Shown here one piece after another: positions 3,882 through 19,707 of a stretch of DNA of 32,422 nucleotides. How positions within the stretch are numbered: position 1 is the stretch's first letter; each line of letters opens with the position of its first letter. The DNA lies in NCBI GenBank assembly GCA_029838215.1, contig JALGVI010000030.1, forward strand, positions 1 through 32,422, given 5' to 3'. The stretch comes from Candidatus Helarchaeota archaeon. GTDB taxonomy: Archaea; Asgardarchaeota; Lokiarchaeia; Helarchaeales; RDOG01. The notes beneath the pieces are model-generated. The model ran no database searches and was not told where the DNA came from. It saw only the letters and a list, made by a program, of their open reading frames with translations. The position numbers were made by a program, and so were the translations under genes.

Positions 3882-5549
3882 TCAAGTTCTCAAGAAATCC
3901 GAGCTTGATTTTCTAATAACTCCTGATAAGAGATTCAAACGGATCATATCTTCCAAAAGGAGAATAATTTGAGTATTAGTTATTGCAACTCTTTCGTGAA
4001 TTTCTTGAAATGTCAATACACCATCGTCTTTTTCTTTGACCATTTGAATGATCAGCTCCCGAATACCCATTTCATTTACGAGCTGGTCATCTTTAATGTC
4101 ATAAAAGAGGTTACGTAAGAATCCATTTTGTTTTAAATCAGTAATGATCTCGCGAAGCACCAATTCTGAATAGTTCAATCGTTCAGAAATTTCTTTTATC
4201 GTCATTTTTGCCTTAGAACCGACAAGTTGAGTAACTTCAGTCGTGAAGGAATTGATCCAATCCGGAACATCCTTTGGAAATTCTTCAATTTCTTCAATCG
4301 TGAATTCAAGCTTATGATAGTCGGACCCTGTCGCCAAGTTCGGATCATTCAACCTGTAAATGTCGAATCCATAATTCTTACGTCTCTCATCATACTTGGT
4401 GTGGTCAAATACGAGGGCAATGGCTTTTGGATTAGCACTTTGAAAGCCTAAATGATTGATGATGTCAGTGTGAGAAAGGAATAGATTTAACCCGGGATGG
4501 CTATGATACCATCCAACTATGAATTCACCCTTACCTTCAGCATAAAGAGCGTCATCAATTTGAGCTGCCTTGATATAATGTTCATCCTTGAATGCAAATT
4601 CGGAGGAGCTGCCAGACATTATTGGCACCGCATCCACGCAAAAAACATCGTCTCCTTCAATCCGACCTATCAGCCATCCGGCTGTCTCCACCCATTTACT
4701 CTCAGGAATACCACTATTAGCATAATATAACATGTGAAGCATCATGTTACGATATGCCTTGCAATTTATGATGACTTTTCCTTTTTCCTTGATTTGAGCT
4801 TTTTGGAGGTGAAGCTTATCATCATTTACGAAATTTGACAATACCTTGTGGAAAGTACCTAGTAAATTTGCCCTCAATGCCGGTCCTGCAAATGATAATC
4901 GGTCAGATTGGGGCTCTATTGATGAAACGAGAATGTCCTTTGCTTCACTTGCTTTTCCTTCTAATAAGTATTTTAAGAACAGCGTTAGATCGAGACCCAT
5001 TCCAGAAACATCAAGCATTTCAAGTTCTTGCATGTGGACATTTATCAGAGACATGGCTTCTTCTTTTTTGTTTAAGAGGAGAAAGATAATTGCCTTGAAA
5101 TTCTGATAAATTATTGCTCTTTCATGTATGAACCTCTTTAGGACACCTTCTTCCAGATCAACTCGTTTTTTTGTAAAATCAATTGCCTTATCGAAAAACT
5201 TTAATGCCGTCTGAAGATTCTTATCGCCTTCAGTATCATCAAATGAAAGGAGACATGTTCCAATGTCTGCACAACATTTAGCAATATGTTCCAAGGTATT
5301 CGCCTTTTCTGCAGAACTTTTCGATATAACTTTAATTGATTCGTCAAATACCTTGATTGCTTTTTTATATTCACCCAGTTCTGAAAAACAAGCAGCCGCA
5401 CGGTAAAGAAACGTGGCAATCTTTAATTCTCTATCATCAGCTTCACTTTTTTTAACTTCTGAAATCAAAGCCAAATAAATTTTTATGGCATCTTGGAATT
5501 TACCCTGGGTTTCCATTAAATGGGCTTTTTCTTCCATTGACATGCCCAA
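3882..5549 (-). CDS. multidomain protein: TPR-like helical repeats + JAMM/MPN+ + two winged-helix (PCI-like) domains
   Basis: TPR-like motifs (AAACFSELGEYKKAIKVFDESI); MPN with VETAGWLIG and GWYHSHPGLNLFLSHTD; C-terminal MTIKEISERL...LREIITDLKQNG and LTFQEIHERV...LLEDMIRLNLLSGVI. The start may be ATG 5543 rather than TTG 5549. Confidence 0.85.
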   Translation of the reverse strand: MGMSMEEKAHLMETQGKFQDAIKIYLALISEVKKSEADDRELKIATFLYRAAACFSELGEYKKAIKVFDESIKVISKSSAEKANTLEHIAKCCADIGTCLLSFDDTEGDKNLQTALKFFDKAIDFTKKRVDLEEGVLKRFIHERAIIYQNFKAIIFLLLNKKEEAMSLINVHMQELEMLDVSGMGLDLTLFLKYLLEGKASEAKDILVSSIEPQSDRLSFAGPALRANLLGTFHKVLSNFVNDDKLHLQKAQIKEKGKVIINCKAYRNMMLHMLYYANSGIPESKWVETAGWLIGRIEGDDVFCVDAVPIMSGSSSEFAFKDEHYIKAAQIDDALYAEGKGEFIVGWYHSHPGLNLFLSHTDIINHLGFQSANPKAIALVFDHTKYDERRKNYGFDIYRLNDPNLATGSDYHKLEFTIEEIEEFPKDVPDWINSFTTEVTQLVGSKAKMTIKEISERLNYSELVLREIITDLKQNGFLRNLFYDIKDDQLVNEMGIRELIIQMVKEKDDGVLTFQEIHERVAITNTQIILLLEDMIRLNLLSGVIRKSSSDFLRT

Positions 5550-5570: not shown

Positions 5571-6119
5571 TTAATCAACCTTAATATTTTTCACGAGTGC
5601 TTTAGCCAATGTAGTAAAGGCTTCATTGACATTTTTATTTTCCTTAGCAGAGGTCTCTATGAAATCAATGCACCCGATTCGTTCTTTCAACGCCTTGCCT
5701 TCTTCAGAGGATACTTCCTTGTTCTCCAAATCGATCTTGTTTGCTATGAGTACTTTCTGGTGATTTCCTTGTATGTGTTTTTCACAGTTTGGTAGCCAAT
5801 CAGTTTCAATTCTGTTAAACGTGGATTTTCTTGATACATCGTAGACAATTAGCACTCCTTGACTTCCTTGGAAATATACATTTAGCATTTGCGCCCAACG
5901 ATCCTGTTGACCAGCCAAATCCCATAGAGTAAACTTGATCTTCGTGCCATCATCAAGTTCCAAAGTCTTTAGGTATATATTTGCACCCATCGTTGATTTA
6001 TATTCTTCACTGAACTTATCCGTTACGTATTTTTTCACGAGTGATGTTTTGCCTACGGCAGGTTCGCCGATCAGAATCACCTTAAACACATATAGCGGTA
6101 GCTTCTTCATATCTTGCAC
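5571..6119 (-). CDS. Rab-like small GTPase (Ras superfamily)
   Basis: G1 GEPAVGKT, G2 YKSTMG, G3 WDLAGQ, G4 NKID, G5 ETSAK. No C-terminal prenylation Cys. Confidence 0.95.
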   Translation of the reverse strand: MQDMKKLPLYVFKVILIGEPAVGKTSLVKKYVTDKFSEEYKSTMGANIYLKTLELDDGTKIKFTLWDLAGQQDRWAQMLNVYFQGSQGVLIVYDVSRKSTFNRIETDWLPNCEKHIQGNHQKVLIANKIDLENKEVSSEEGKALKERIGCIDFIETSAKENKNVNEAFTTLAKALVKNIKVD

Positions 6120-8566: not shown

Positions 8567-9454
8567 ATGGCTTGGCAACCATACGAGATTCTGGATAAAA
8601 CAGAAAATACGGAAAATATTTACAAGATAATCGTCCTAGGGGATGGATTTGTAGGTAAGACAGCCATTACCGTCAGATTTTGCGAAAATCAGTTCAAAGA
8701 TGAATACATCATGACCATTGGGGTCAATTTTGGAACAAAGAAATTTCGTTATAAAGGAACGTCCTATACGCTTCAAATTTGGGATATTGCAGGTCAAGAG
8801 AGATTTGGGGCTTTTAGAACTTCGTATTATAGTGCTGCTGTAGGCGTAATTTTGGTTTATGACGTAACGAATAAGTTGACATTTCTTGATCTACCAAATT
8901 GGACTTGTGAATTTCAACAATTAATTGGAACCAAACCTGTAGTCGTAGTTGGCAACAAGCTAGACTTGCCGGACTCGGGACAGGTTGACTCAAGAACGGG
9001 CAGACCTTATGAGAAACAGGTGGGTTTCAAAGAAGGTAAGTGCTTTGCAGATTCCATAAATGCGACTTTTCTTGAGACTTCAGCAAAGGGAAATTATAAT
9101 ATTGATAACATGTTTACGGCTTTGGTAGATTCGGTAGATGAAAAATTGTTTTCAAACATGCTCAATGTAAATTCGTTTAATTCGATTGATTTAGGCTTTA
9201 ATAAGCTCTATAGTCTCGTTTCAGGAAATGACGTCAGCAAGATTTACGACTCATTAATGATGCTAAAGCATTCTATTTTTCAACAAAATCCATATTCTGT
9301 GGTGCTTGGGAATATAAACGAGTGGATAAATTACCTGCCAAAGGCTCCTTATACATCAGAAGTTAGTAGCTTATTACTTAAAAGCATGGATGTCTGGCAA
9401 CAATATTATGAGCAGAGCTTGAAAGAAGGCGAGGCAGTCTCTTCAAGAATTTAA
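8567..9454 (+). CDS. Rab-like small GTPase with G4-alpha4 insert and ~100 aa C-terminal extra domain
   Basis: GDGFVGKT, YIMTIGVNF, QIWDIAGQERF, LVYDVT, NKLD, ETSAK; SD-like GGAGGG upstream. Confidence 0.93.
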   Translation: MAWQPYEILDKTENTENIYKIIVLGDGFVGKTAITVRFCENQFKDEYIMTIGVNFGTKKFRYKGTSYTLQIWDIAGQERFGAFRTSYYSAAVGVILVYDVTNKLTFLDLPNWTCEFQQLIGTKPVVVVGNKLDLPDSGQVDSRTGRPYEKQVGFKEGKCFADSINATFLETSAKGNYNIDNMFTALVDSVDEKLFSNMLNVNSFNSIDLGFNKLYSLVSGNDVSKIYDSLMMLKHSIFQQNPYSVVLGNINEWINYLPKAPYTSEVSSLLLKSMDVWQQYYEQSLKEGEAVSSRI

Positions 9455-9474
9455 TTTTTCCTTTTTTTTCTTTT
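9455..9474 (+). terminator. U-rich archaeal terminator candidate
   Basis: TTTTTCCTTTTTTTTCTTTT immediately after the stop codon. Confidence 0.5.
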
Positions 9475-9557
9475 ATCTAATAATTATTAATGCGAATTTT
9501 TAGTTTGAGTGTTAATTTTTTTCAATTATTTTGCAAACCGATGAAGAAAAGAGCTCA

Positions 9558-10601
9558 TTATCGTTTGAAGAAAAAATTGTGACTCAAGAGCTGCACGGTC
9601 GCAATAATGGTAACCAACATGATAAAAATTGTCGTGATCATGAAAAAATAGGACAGAATCGTCAAGGTTATAAAGCCGACATTGAGTACAAGTGTTGACA
9701 GCAATGTATTTCGTAGAAATTCCTTTTTTGATGGTTTATCCTCAAACCGGATTATAAAGGTGAATAAAGCAGCGATTGCAAGAAGGATAAACGGAAAAAG
9801 AAGCCACATCATTGGATCTTGGAACGATTCATTTAGTGTATTATTAAAATGCGGGGCGGTGGCAACATCAACGATGAGATGTAACCAATTCATTGTATAA
9901 AACGCGCCATATTGATTAATTAGGATCTCAGGTCCAGAACAGACAAATCCGTTATTGATTATCCGATTGAGATAAATGGGAGTTCCATCTTCGAGAAAGA
10001 CAACGGTATACCAATGTAGTGGAGTTTCCGCGGCATATGCATTGTAACCAAGATATTGCAAGAAAGAAGCGGTTACCACTGCCTGAGCTTGACAGTCGCC
10101 GTGACCTGAAATTAATGCTTCGGTAGGTGTCGCCACTCGGAGAATGACGAAATATTGGAAGTGGATGTTCAAGTATTGAATCTTGAAAAGACAAAAATCG
10201 CTAATCAATTCGAGTTTTGCCGGTTTATCGAGGGCCGCAAATTCCGTTTCATTGATGCTTTTTGATGAGTTCAGCCAGTCGTATAACATGTTCGGTTCAG
10301 AGGAATTAAGTGCGGTTACGGCGGGAGCATTCGGAGTGATCAGGGTGGAAACATTGACGTGTCGATAGAATTGTTCGGGCCAAATAAAAGGATTCGAAAC
10401 CAGAATGAAGAAACAAATGAATAATGCTATTGGTAGCTTGCCCGCGCGCCGCCAAAAATTCTTTTTTCGCAAGCAACAAATTCCGGTAATGAGGACGATT
10501 ATTAATAGTCCAGAAATGAATGCGAAATAAATCGTAATTAAGAAAATGTAAAAAATGAGTAATGGAATTCCCACGTATAGAAAGAATTTCTTCCAATTCA
10601 A
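9558..10601 (-). CDS. polytopic membrane protein with transglutaminase-like (Cys-protease fold) domain
   Basis: TPTEALISGHGDCQAQAVVTASFLQYLG (catalytic Cys) and HWYTVV (His). About 3 N-terminal and 3 C-terminal TM helices; several N-glycosylation sequons in the soluble domain. Confidence 0.8.
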   Translation of the reverse strand: MNWKKFFLYVGIPLLIFYIFLITIYFAFISGLLIIVLITGICCLRKKNFWRRAGKLPIALFICFFILVSNPFIWPEQFYRHVNVSTLITPNAPAVTALNSSEPNMLYDWLNSSKSINETEFAALDKPAKLELISDFCLFKIQYLNIHFQYFVILRVATPTEALISGHGDCQAQAVVTASFLQYLGYNAYAAETPLHWYTVVFLEDGTPIYLNRIINNGFVCSGPEILINQYGAFYTMNWLHLIVDVATAPHFNNTLNESFQDPMMWLLFPFILLAIAALFTFIIRFEDKPSKKEFLRNTLLSTLVLNVGFITLTILSYFFMITTIFIMLVTIIATVQLLSHNFFFKR

Positions 10602-10611
10602 AGGAAACCCA

Positions 10612-11466
10612 TCATTCTTCGATATTTATGATCTTGTAGTTGTGTTTCCATGCAGGTATGTTTTCAAGCATGGCTTGACGGCTTTGTTCGTTCCAACCGT
10701 AATTTTCGAGGTAACGAATCCATTGCGTCATGTTCTGCACGGTTACGGAAAAAGGGACTTCCTTAAATATGGAGTATCGAGTGATTTTAAGAGCCACCGT
10801 TGCAGCTGCTTGGTTGTCAATGGTTTTCAAGATTTGTTCCAGTTCATCAAATGCTTGATCGATGGGCAATGCTTTAACCTTAGGTATCATGATGGACTGC
10901 CTGTGTTCTTTAATGAGATCGTAAATGCTTGCGAATAGGCGATTGATATTCCGACCGCTTTTCGCAGATACTTCGATATATGGTGCGTTAATATATTTGG
11001 CAAAATTTTCGGCTTCATCCGGAGCAACCATTCGGTCAGGCAAATCAACCTTGTTTCCTACGACGATCATCGGCGTCCTGCCTGTTTCATCCTGAAATTC
11101 CAGAACCCAGTTCTCAAGGTTTCCAAAAGATTCATAGACGGTTGTATCAAAAACGAGAATTCCACAAGATGCACCCCGATAATACATGTTTCTCAGGCTT
11201 TTGAATCGGCTTTGTCCTGCAACATCCCAGATTTGGTATTTCATATTTTTTCCATCAAGACGCAAAGATTTTATGAAGAAGTCGGCACCGATCGTCATTT
11301 TATAGCCTGATTTGAAAAGCCCCTTACAGAATCGGGTTCCAATAGCGGTTTTTCCAACGGCTCCGTCACCCAGAAGTATCAATTTATAGAGAGCATCATA
11401 CTCGGCATTATCAGGAAGCGTTTCCAATTGAATGTCATCATCGTCGGATTGGGAAATAATCATCAC
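10612..11466 (-). CDS. Rab-like small GTPase with ~95 aa C-terminal extra domain
   Basis: EYDALYKLILLGDGAVGKT, YKMTIGADF, QIWDVAGQSRF, YYRGA, NKVD, EVSAK. Confidence 0.93.
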   Translation of the reverse strand: MMIISQSDDDDIQLETLPDNAEYDALYKLILLGDGAVGKTAIGTRFCKGLFKSGYKMTIGADFFIKSLRLDGKNMKYQIWDVAGQSRFKSLRNMYYRGASCGILVFDTTVYESFGNLENWVLEFQDETGRTPMIVVGNKVDLPDRMVAPDEAENFAKYINAPYIEVSAKSGRNINRLFASIYDLIKEHRQSIMIPKVKALPIDQAFDELEQILKTIDNQAAATVALKITRYSIFKEVPFSVTVQNMTQWIRYLENYGWNEQSRQAMLENIPAWKHNYKIINIEE

Positions 11467-18270: not shown

Positions 18271-19431
18271 TCATTCCATTTCTGCTTGAGCTTTACACCA
18301 TAACACGATCTTGGGAGTCAACCAGAATGCACCGTAAATCAGCGGCCCGGCGAGTATCAATAGAATTATTCCAAAGATCAATAGATTGATAAGAGGGAAA
18401 ATGGGGAGAATGCTCATTAGAAGACCCATGTAATCAACATATAGTAAAGACATGAACGTGGATCCAAGGTAAGCAGGGAGAGTGTTGCTAAGCCCGTGGA
18501 TGATAATCGGTCCGACAAGGCTTTGAGTTTTTTCGTAAATGATGCACATGAAAATTCCGAATAGTCCCGTTGAAAGAACTCGAGTGGCAGCATCAAAAAT
18601 GTTGTTGATTTCAAACGTTTTCGGAATGGAAATGATTAAACCATCAAATTTTACATACCACGGAAGATGAAATAGACCAAAAATCAAAGATGATATGATG
18701 ATGGATGCAAAATAAGACCCGTGTTTCCAAGATTTGGTGGCTCGACGGAGCTTATTGTAGAAATAACCACGAAAAATTAGTTCTTCACTCAATGCTACAA
18801 AAAGTATTTGATAAATCAAGGCTATTAAGAAAATGGGATTTGGAATCGTCATGAATGGAGTGAGAATCTGCATTACAACAATTATTTGAGGAAGAAACAA
18901 GAGAAGGGCAATGAGAATGATAGGTCCCAGCAATATAAAAGCCATTATAAAAAGATACGAAGATCCCAATAATGCATTTTGCCAAAATTTCTCCTCGTGA
19001 AGACCAAAGTCCTTGAGGACGAGACCTTCAACTACAAGGATTTGCAAGAAAATTAAATAGAGCATGGGGAGCTTTTCAAGTGGAAGAGTGCAAATATAAG
19101 TGATGTAAGTCCGAAAAACACAGATTAGAAAAGTGTAGTAAATGTTTACGAAGAGTATCTTCTTTATACTCCAATTATCTTCTAATCGATGAAGATCCAA
19201 AAAATCATTAATTTTGGATGGGCGAAATACCACGTATAGAATAGGAATGATTAAAATGAAGGAGAAAAGAATCGGCAATAAATGCATGTATTGATAATCG
19301 ATGGTAGAAGGCAAATGTAGATCAATCCTGAATGGATTTATCGGTAAGAAATCAAATGTTAAAAACAGAATCATGCTTGATAAGAATATATAAATCAGGG
19401 ATGGCAAAGCTCGCTTAATCCAGACATTCAT
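18271..19431 (-). CDS. CPBP/Abi (CAAX protease Rce1-like) intramembrane glutamic endopeptidase
   Basis: ALSEELIFRGY, FGLFHLP, IIIHGLSN in a polytopic protein. The start is placed at ATG 19431 (GAGGG upstream) rather than 19509. Confidence 0.9.
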   Translation of the reverse strand: MNVWIKRALPSLIYIFLSSMILFLTFDFLPINPFRIDLHLPSTIDYQYMHLLPILFSFILIIPILYVVFRPSKINDFLDLHRLEDNWSIKKILFVNIYYTFLICVFRTYITYICTLPLEKLPMLYLIFLQILVVEGLVLKDFGLHEEKFWQNALLGSSYLFIMAFILLGPIILIALLLFLPQIIVVMQILTPFMTIPNPIFLIALIYQILFVALSEELIFRGYFYNKLRRATKSWKHGSYFASIIISSLIFGLFHLPWYVKFDGLIISIPKTFEINNIFDAATRVLSTGLFGIFMCIIYEKTQSLVGPIIIHGLSNTLPAYLGSTFMSLLYVDYMGLLMSILPIFPLINLLIFGIILLILAGPLIYGAFWLTPKIVLWCKAQAEME

Positions 19432-19707
19432 TAAAGAGCCCTCACGTGATTTTACCAAGGTATTTGAGGAGAAAACTCGGTGAATATTATTCTTTTTGTA
19501 TATCGGCATTTAAAACTAATTTCCATACTTTTAGGATCATGGTGATTATTTTATATATCTAAAAAGTGATAGATAAAACTCGCGCCAAAATCTTTGACGA
19601 ATCAAGTAGGTTTTGGTTTGTAAAAAAAAATTGGGGATGTAAAACCATTTTGAAAGAGAATGAAGAATTCATATTTAATTTAGTAAAATTCAAGGAGAGT
19701 TAAAATC

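Follow-up and report, generated by a model that had tools for sequence, protein, structure and literature searches.

Asgard small GTPases have neither the prenyl tails nor the REP and GDI proteins of eukaryotic Rabs (PMC10933270), so that their localisation and the targets that they control are an open question. The same question is raised by two neighbouring genes on a contig of a Candidatus Helarchaeota archaeon (JALGVI010000030.1, assembly GCA_029838215.1; contig C82 of the source genome, which is 3.6 Mb in size and 94% complete). The whole stretch of 32,422 nucleotides (nt) was analysed and is referred to here as the window. An initial annotation, made from the sequence alone, had described the products of the two genes, P0001 and P0002, as Rab-like GTPases with an unrecognised C-terminal domain of about 95 residues in place of a prenylated tail. 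In this study, we report that this extension contains a four-helix bundle, that the bundle is a member of a family of modules that occurs across the Asgard archaea, and that the module is probably a remote relative of the C-terminal domain of Vps28 (Vps28-C), a subunit of the endosomal sorting complex required for transport I (ESCRT-I). On the reading that we favour, to which we give a probability of roughly 0.55, the Vps28-C-like bundle docks the GTPase to a protein receptor and replaces the lipid anchor in a lineage-restricted family of Rab-like GTPases.

Two Rab-like GTPases with a C-terminal four-helix bundle

Both open reading frames (ORFs) and their shared extension proved to be real. 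The whole proteins were 37% identical (E=7e-62), and the C-terminal parts alone aligned, through the sequence blocks quoted in the initial annotation, over 77 residues with 26% identity (E=5e-11), far better than expected by chance. No family was matched to the last ~100 residues of P0001 and P0002 in a Pfam scan. AlphaFold2, run on an alignment of 29 module sequences, gave four helices with a predicted local distance difference test score (pLDDT) of 94.7 and a predicted template modelling score (pTM) of 0.84, in agreement with the folded helical domain that had been proposed; the model has the compact up-down four-helix bundle of the Vps28-C superfamily (about 90 residues). The features of the two genes are as follows.

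8567..9454, + strand: type A Rab-like GTPase gene, P0001, 295 amino acids (aa) (ORF; Pfam Ras, E=4.5e-50)
8624..9136, + strand: G domain of P0001, aa 20-190, G1-G5 intact (Pfam Ras, 20-190)
8969..9022, + strand: type A-specific insert of 16-18 aa after NKLD, aa 135-152 (family alignment)
9140..9184, + strand: linker of P0001, aa 192-206, predicted ordered (AlphaFold2 full-length model, pLDDT 94 for 191-200 and 91 for 201-210)
9185..9415, + strand: Vps28-C-like four-helix bundle module of P0001, aa 207-283
9416..9451, + strand: conserved C-terminal tail of type A, 12 aa (284-295) (family conservation, pLDDT)
10612..11466, - strand: type B Rab-like GTPase gene, P0002, 284 aa (ORF; Pfam Ras, E=3.9e-49)
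10633..10872, - strand: Vps28-C-like four-helix bundle module of P0002, aa 199-278 (module profile, E=1.1e-20; alignments)
10912..11385, - strand: G domain of P0002, aa 28-185 (Pfam Ras, 28-185)

The single domain of about 95 residues is thus better divided, in P0001, into a linker, a bundle of ~80 aa and a tail of 12 aa. The full-length AlphaFold2 model of P0001 (pLDDT 88, pTM 0.85) has an ordered linker, and both the pTM and the linker suggest a fixed placement of the bundle relative to the G domain. When this model was used to search the ESM Atlas, the G domain alone was matched and no cluster of the same two-domain shape was found. Within the bundle, the loop between helices 2 and 3 (K-x-S-I-F-x-x-N-P-Y-S-V-V-L-G-N) is strongly conserved in the family. 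An interpretation as a histidine phosphotransfer (HPt) bundle was dropped, as helix 2 has no conserved phospho-accepting His.

The tail of type A proteins follows the motif S-L-x-[DE]-G-x-[AP]-V-x-S-x-[IL], with G288 and V291 kept in 36 of 38 members, and no conserved tail follows the module in P0002. Residues 288-295 are predicted to be disordered in the full-length model of P0001 (pLDDT <50), which is typical of short linear binding motifs, and the tail therefore looks like a candidate docking motif of this kind. The lack of a terminal Cys, noted at the outset for P0001 and P0002, extends to all 38 family members (last 10 residues), none of which ends in the manner required for the geranylgeranylation of Rabs.

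The G domain is a predicted working GTP/GDP switch, since G1-G5 and the catalytic Gln are kept in 38/38 members. In P0001 the motifs are GDGFVGKT, T50, DIAGQ, NKLD and SAK, all of them invariant or at least 90% conserved in the family, and by eye the stretches IGVNF, LQIW, YYxxA and LVYDVT resemble RabF motifs. The closest solved structures to P0001 were Rab21, the Thorarchaeota Rab and Rab8A (E 1e-33 to 1e-35), with Sec4 and Rab1 also among the top matches. The Pfam family Gtr1_RagA scored 15-20 bits, under its cut-off, and covered the G domain alone. The insert after NKLD is Gly/Pro-rich and is a family trait: it is present in every type A row of the alignment and gapped in P0002 and in P0010 (261 aa), the nearest relative of P0002.

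The module family and its probable relationship to Vps28-C

A profile built from four extensions was searched exhaustively with HMMER against 1.84 billion cluster representatives and found only nine proteins, namely further GTPases or GTPase fragments and four proteins of 880-1080 aa that were matched three times each. A search with a profile of the extensions, which the initial annotation had suggested, thus found relatives both on other GTPases and on long Lokiarchaeal proteins, and a module profile was then built. On iteration, the profile settled on a module of ~77-85 aa that occurs in 1-6 copies in long "hypothetical proteins" of Promethearchaeota/Lokiarchaeota, which combine long coiled coils with a TrmB-type winged helix at the N-terminus; the source genome encodes such a protein, P0017 (Pfam TrmB, E=2e-9). 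A word-based protein search with the C-terminal profile returned only the query itself and one relative, and scans of genome contigs and metagenome contigs with that profile returned no relatives.

A search of 5.8 billion proteins with a profile of the full-length GTPase and module gave 38 clusters (287-307 aa); in all of them the module is present (E<=1e-14) and the G motifs are intact. These form a small, lineage-restricted family of Rab-like GTPases in Lokiarchaeia, in bins labelled Loki and Hel, and so the proposal of a distinct GTPase subfamily was supported in the form of a narrow family without a prenylatable tail. Members are named in NCBI only as "GTP-binding protein [Candidatus Lokiarchaeota]" or "Rab family GTPase [Candidatus Helarchaeota]". 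About 36 of the proteins are of type A and two (P0002 and P0010) of type B. A third paralog of the source genome, P0006 (294 aa, type A), lies on another contig (C131). Tandem arrays of type A genes were also found, seven on one 11-kb contig (L055:4786-11360) and three in GCA_011365055.1 (L106:10001-13113), with no type B gene near either array. Each of these two metagenome-derived contigs also has two genes for SCP2-domain proteins within a few kb of the array, which were set aside as a likely coincidence, because the genomes with arrays are rich in lipid-metabolism genes. None of the other species-representative genomes searched had the GTPase fusion.

Other forms of the module are widespread. 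Proteins composed of a coiled coil, a linker and a C-terminal module were found in 190 of 251 Asgard genomes (83 of the 89 high-quality ones), and the TrmB-type form in every one of the 68 family f4 genomes sampled. The placement of the module is adaptor-like, in that it ends or is repeated in the TrmB-type winged-helix/coiled-coil proteins and ends the small coiled-coil proteins. Four proteins of 880-1080 aa (P0011-P0014) and the product of L017:4609-7500 (contig C1), all annotated as hypothetical, combine a TrmB-type winged helix and coiled coils with up to six tandem modules; judged by eye, the central region of the 880-1080-aa proteins resembles the TrmB C-terminal domain.

The initial annotation could not assign the domain. 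It can now probably be placed, at the level of remote homology and transitively, beside bona fide Vps28-C. A mixed module alignment was compared with an alignment of 23 Asgard Vps28-C domains by profile-profile methods, which gave a probability of 88.9% (P=2.4e-6) over 65 columns covering helices 2-4. The score of 34.2 stood against 14.6 for the reversed alignment, a maximum of 12.3 in 40 column shuffles, and a mean of 14.8 (standard deviation 3.3, maximum 25.3) in 40 shuffles of 7-column blocks. The GTPase-borne modules were matched to the TrmB-type modules at 97.5% (P=6e-12) and to the coiled-coil-type modules at 89% (P=2e-6, hhalign), and these intermediates were in turn matched to Vps28-C, at 92% (P=8e-7) for the TrmB-type and 95% (P=4e-8) for the coiled-coil-type modules. 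When the whole source genome was searched with a Vps28-C profile, the sole match was the module of P0017 (E=0.0064). Conversely, the module profile was searched against five other genomes, and the match following the true module proteins was the Vps28-C domain of a 789-aa UFL1-like protein (E=0.0044; genome G010), which itself scores 26.3 bits with Pfam PF03997, above the cut-off. A structure search of the module, also suggested at the outset, ranked the Vps28 C-terminal domain first in two independent structure libraries; the list of structural matches includes the C-terminus of TIP47. Taken from these comparisons, membership of the module in a Vps28-C-like superfamily is probable.

PF03997 itself was found in 137 of the 201 Asgard genomes searched. 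Genomes of family f4, of the same class as the source genome, have it twice each, in a canonical Vps28 of ~215 aa and at the C-terminus of a PCI/UFL1/DDRGK protein of ~790 aa.

Proposed docking to a protein receptor and the alternatives

In Vps28, the C-terminal domain serves as an adaptor for protein docking, with ESCRT-II as its binding partner. Since the module, in addition, ends scaffold-like proteins and module genes adjoin GTPase genes, we infer a docking-adaptor role for the bundle of the GTPases. The ordered linker and the four-helix bundle of ~80 residues would stand in for the hypervariable prenylated tail, and the bundle would dock the GTPase to a protein receptor, localising the switch by protein contact and not by a lipid anchor. 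Candidate receptors would be winged-helix ESCRT-II-like proteins or other module-bearing proteins. The fold and family relationships of the module, the fused architecture with its rarity and the intact GTPase motifs are results of the analysis; the role as an adaptor, the choice of partner and any tie to ESCRT are inferences.

Adjacency of module and GTPase genes was seen in two settings. In the source genome, 10 nt separate a Ras-like GTPase gene from a coiled-coil and module gene downstream of it (contig C88, L075:156-1701); the pair encodes a 175-aa GTPase whose catalytic Gln is replaced by His (DIGGH), followed by a 337-aa coiled-coil protein with the Vps28-C-like module. A complex prediction of this GTPase with the bundle of the adjacent protein gave an interface score (ipSAE) of 0.00 in a run without controls, and counts neither way. 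In genus g9 (four near-identical genomes), a coiled-coil and module gene lies between two GTPase genes.

Multidomain Asgard proteins that re-use Vps28-C have been published, with binding to ESCRT-II assumed (10.1101/2024.02.06.579148), and are also described in 10.1101/2020.10.19.343400; the partners listed in these two studies are adaptin appendage, longin, TPR, Ig-like, HTH/PCI and UFL1. Vps28 of Loki- and Heimdallarchaea binds Vps22 in a yeast two-hybrid assay (PMC9192718). A further step, doubtful at present, would be that GTP switches are wired to an ESCRT-type adaptor, the bundle binding an ESCRT-II-like winged-helix subunit or a related scaffold, with nucleotide-controlled recruitment of membrane-remodelling or sorting machinery. 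If true, this would be a prokaryotic precedent for the coupling of Rab GTPases to ESCRT and for a lipid-free localisation of GTPases before prenylation evolved.

Several results weigh against docking by a Vps28-C-like bundle. Compared directly with Vps28-C, the 38 GTPase-borne modules gave a weak match (19%, P=1e-3) in helices 3-4 only, and the Vps28-C assignment is consequently transitive, by way of the intermediates. PF03997 was matched neither by P0001 or P0002 at E<=1 nor by 23 module sequences at E<=10, and in the PDB the module profile gave chance-level matches only, with no chain of Vps28 among those at E<=10. The adjacency of GTPase genes is sporadic, at 5 of 33 coiled-coil and module loci in two lineages (g9 and one locus of the source genome), so that the neighbourhood link is suggestive and not general. 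Moreover, neither a Pfam-detectable Vps28 nor a clear Vps22 was found in the 94%-complete source genome, for which reason an ESCRT-II partner is not established.

An ESCRT locus is nevertheless present in the source genome, where genes for E1, E2, Vps25, Vps4 and two Snf7 proteins form a ubiquitin-ESCRT locus (contig C112:11000-30000); Vps25 (L060:9840-10733) is 297 aa long with an N-terminal extension. A weak PF03997 match on contig C161 turned out to be a DNA methylase. The only candidate for EAP30/Vps22 was a sub-threshold match to a 495-aa winged-helix/coiled-coil protein (L057:1453-2940), which was not taken as an ESCRT-II partner.

The module could instead be a lineage-specific bundle that resembles Vps28-C by convergence, an adaptor with neither an evolutionary nor a functional tie to ESCRT. 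This is the most serious of the alternatives and still an unlikely one: the genome-wide profile searches, made in both directions, picked exactly each other's domains at E<0.01, the probabilities of the intermediates (92-95%) lie well above the shuffled controls, and both structure libraries agree on the Vps28 domain.

Less likely again is a cis-regulatory bundle, which would pack rigidly on its own G domain and, acting as an internal inhibitor or a mimic of an effector, tune the nucleotide cycle or the access of effectors. The fixed domain orientation suggested by the full-length pTM of 0.85 and by a linker with pLDDT >90 is consistent with such an arrangement, as are a helix 2-3 loop far more conserved than packing alone requires and the coupling, in type A, of the bundle with a G-domain insert specific to the family. 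The same module, however, ends proteins that are not GTPases, which argues for a general docking role. Cis-regulation and docking could also coexist.

Slightly less credible still is that the bundle is a dimerisation domain, joining type A to type B or like to like in an obligate dimeric switch comparable to Rag pairs or Roc-COR. The initial annotation had proposed an obligate pairing of this kind, and the type A and type B genes do lie within 1.2 kb of each other in the window; helical bundles often dimerise, and the tandem modules of the long proteins make contacts between modules conceivable. Against this, obligate heterodimerisation found no support, and the pairing of A and B is not conserved: the arrays of seven and three type A genes (L055 and L106) have no type B gene near them, the third type A gene of the source genome is on another contig, and two type B proteins stand against about 36 of type A. 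Solved Vps28-C domains act as monomeric adaptors. The proposed analogy also failed on structural grounds, for the fold is neither roadblock nor COR. Rag GTPases and Roc-COR proteins likewise end, after a G domain of the Ras superfamily, in a folded domain and not in a lipid anchor, but the C-terminal domain is a roadblock alpha/beta fold in Rag and a COR domain in Roc-COR, whereas in the present family it is an all-helical four-helix bundle.

Direct membrane targeting through lipid binding by the bundle in place of a prenyl tail, also put forward initially, found no support and is very improbable: no member has a C-terminal Cys, the gene for P0002 probably shares a transcript with that for a multi-pass membrane protein (P0003), and some four-helix bundles bind membranes, TIP47 being among the structural matches, yet the bundle is compact around an ordinary hydrophobic core, with neither an amphipathic nor a transmembrane segment predicted, its relatives are borne by soluble scaffolds of coiled-coil and DNA-binding type, and the membrane-protein neighbour was seen at the window locus only.

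Comparison with known systems and neighbouring genes

The present family was compared with the systems that it resembles. Vps28-C of ESCRT-I corresponds to the C-terminal half of PF03997 (PDB 2J9U, 2J9V, 2J9W and 2G3K), for which the family has no score. Vps28 also has an N-terminal core/steadiness box that assembles with Vps23. The family has neither: its N-terminal 190 residues are a Ras-family G domain, and its members are therefore not ESCRT-I subunits. By sequence, the G domain is closest to Asgard Rab-like GTPases (Thorarchaeota Rab, PDB 7EZB; PMC10933270) and to eukaryotic Rabs (Rab21, Rab8A, Sec4 and Rab1), with G1-G5 intact. Other Asgard Rabs have no prenylatable Cys either, but those described end after the G domain, whereas the present family adds an ordered extension of ~100 aa with a folded domain and, in type A, the insert of 16-18 aa after NKxD. 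The Asgard proteins with a coiled coil and a Vps28-C-like domain (P0016, L073-L075, L061-L063) have the same module family, always at the C-terminus, and some are encoded beside small GTPase genes; their N-terminus is a coiled coil with a low-complexity linker and not a GTPase, and they are widespread while the GTPase fusion is rare.

The host proteins in the published cases of Vps28-C re-use are not GTPases, and the host here is one. The domain type was thus already known, and no mention of a small GTPase fused to a Vps28-C-like domain was found in the literature; the fusion appears to be a new architecture of the published theme. A Rab-like switch with a folded adaptor of Vps28-C type would be a concrete and testable answer, for one lineage, to the question of how such GTPases are localised, namely by protein contact. 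The fusion would also link directly and physically two sets of eukaryotic signature proteins, small GTPases and ESCRT-type modules, for which the earlier connections in Asgard archaea were gene neighbourhoods and longin-domain fusions only. The family is rare and lineage-specific and its tie to Vps28-C is remote, yet its proteins, being small, soluble and represented by several paralogs, are suited to pull-down experiments and crystallography.

Between the two GTPase genes of the window lies one further gene.

9558..10601, - strand: P0003, 347-aa multi-pass membrane protein, transglutaminase-like by language-model features (nearest ESM Atlas clusters Transglut_core, score 0.92)

P0003 has no Pfam match and contains the motif GHGDCQ. 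Its start is 10 nt past the stop of P0002 on the same strand, a spacing that makes an operon of the two genes likely; no such membrane-protein neighbour was seen at the other loci with a GTPase and module.

Elsewhere in the window, an Rce1-like membrane protein of the CAAX-protease family (CPBP) is encoded at 18271-19509 (- strand), and the GTPases of the window have no CAAX box. A gene for a plain Ras-like GTPase of 182 aa (5571-6119, - strand) lies 21 nt upstream of a gene encoding TPR, JAB/MPN and winged-helix domains (3882-5549), and a second JAB/MPN gene is located at 1684-2676.

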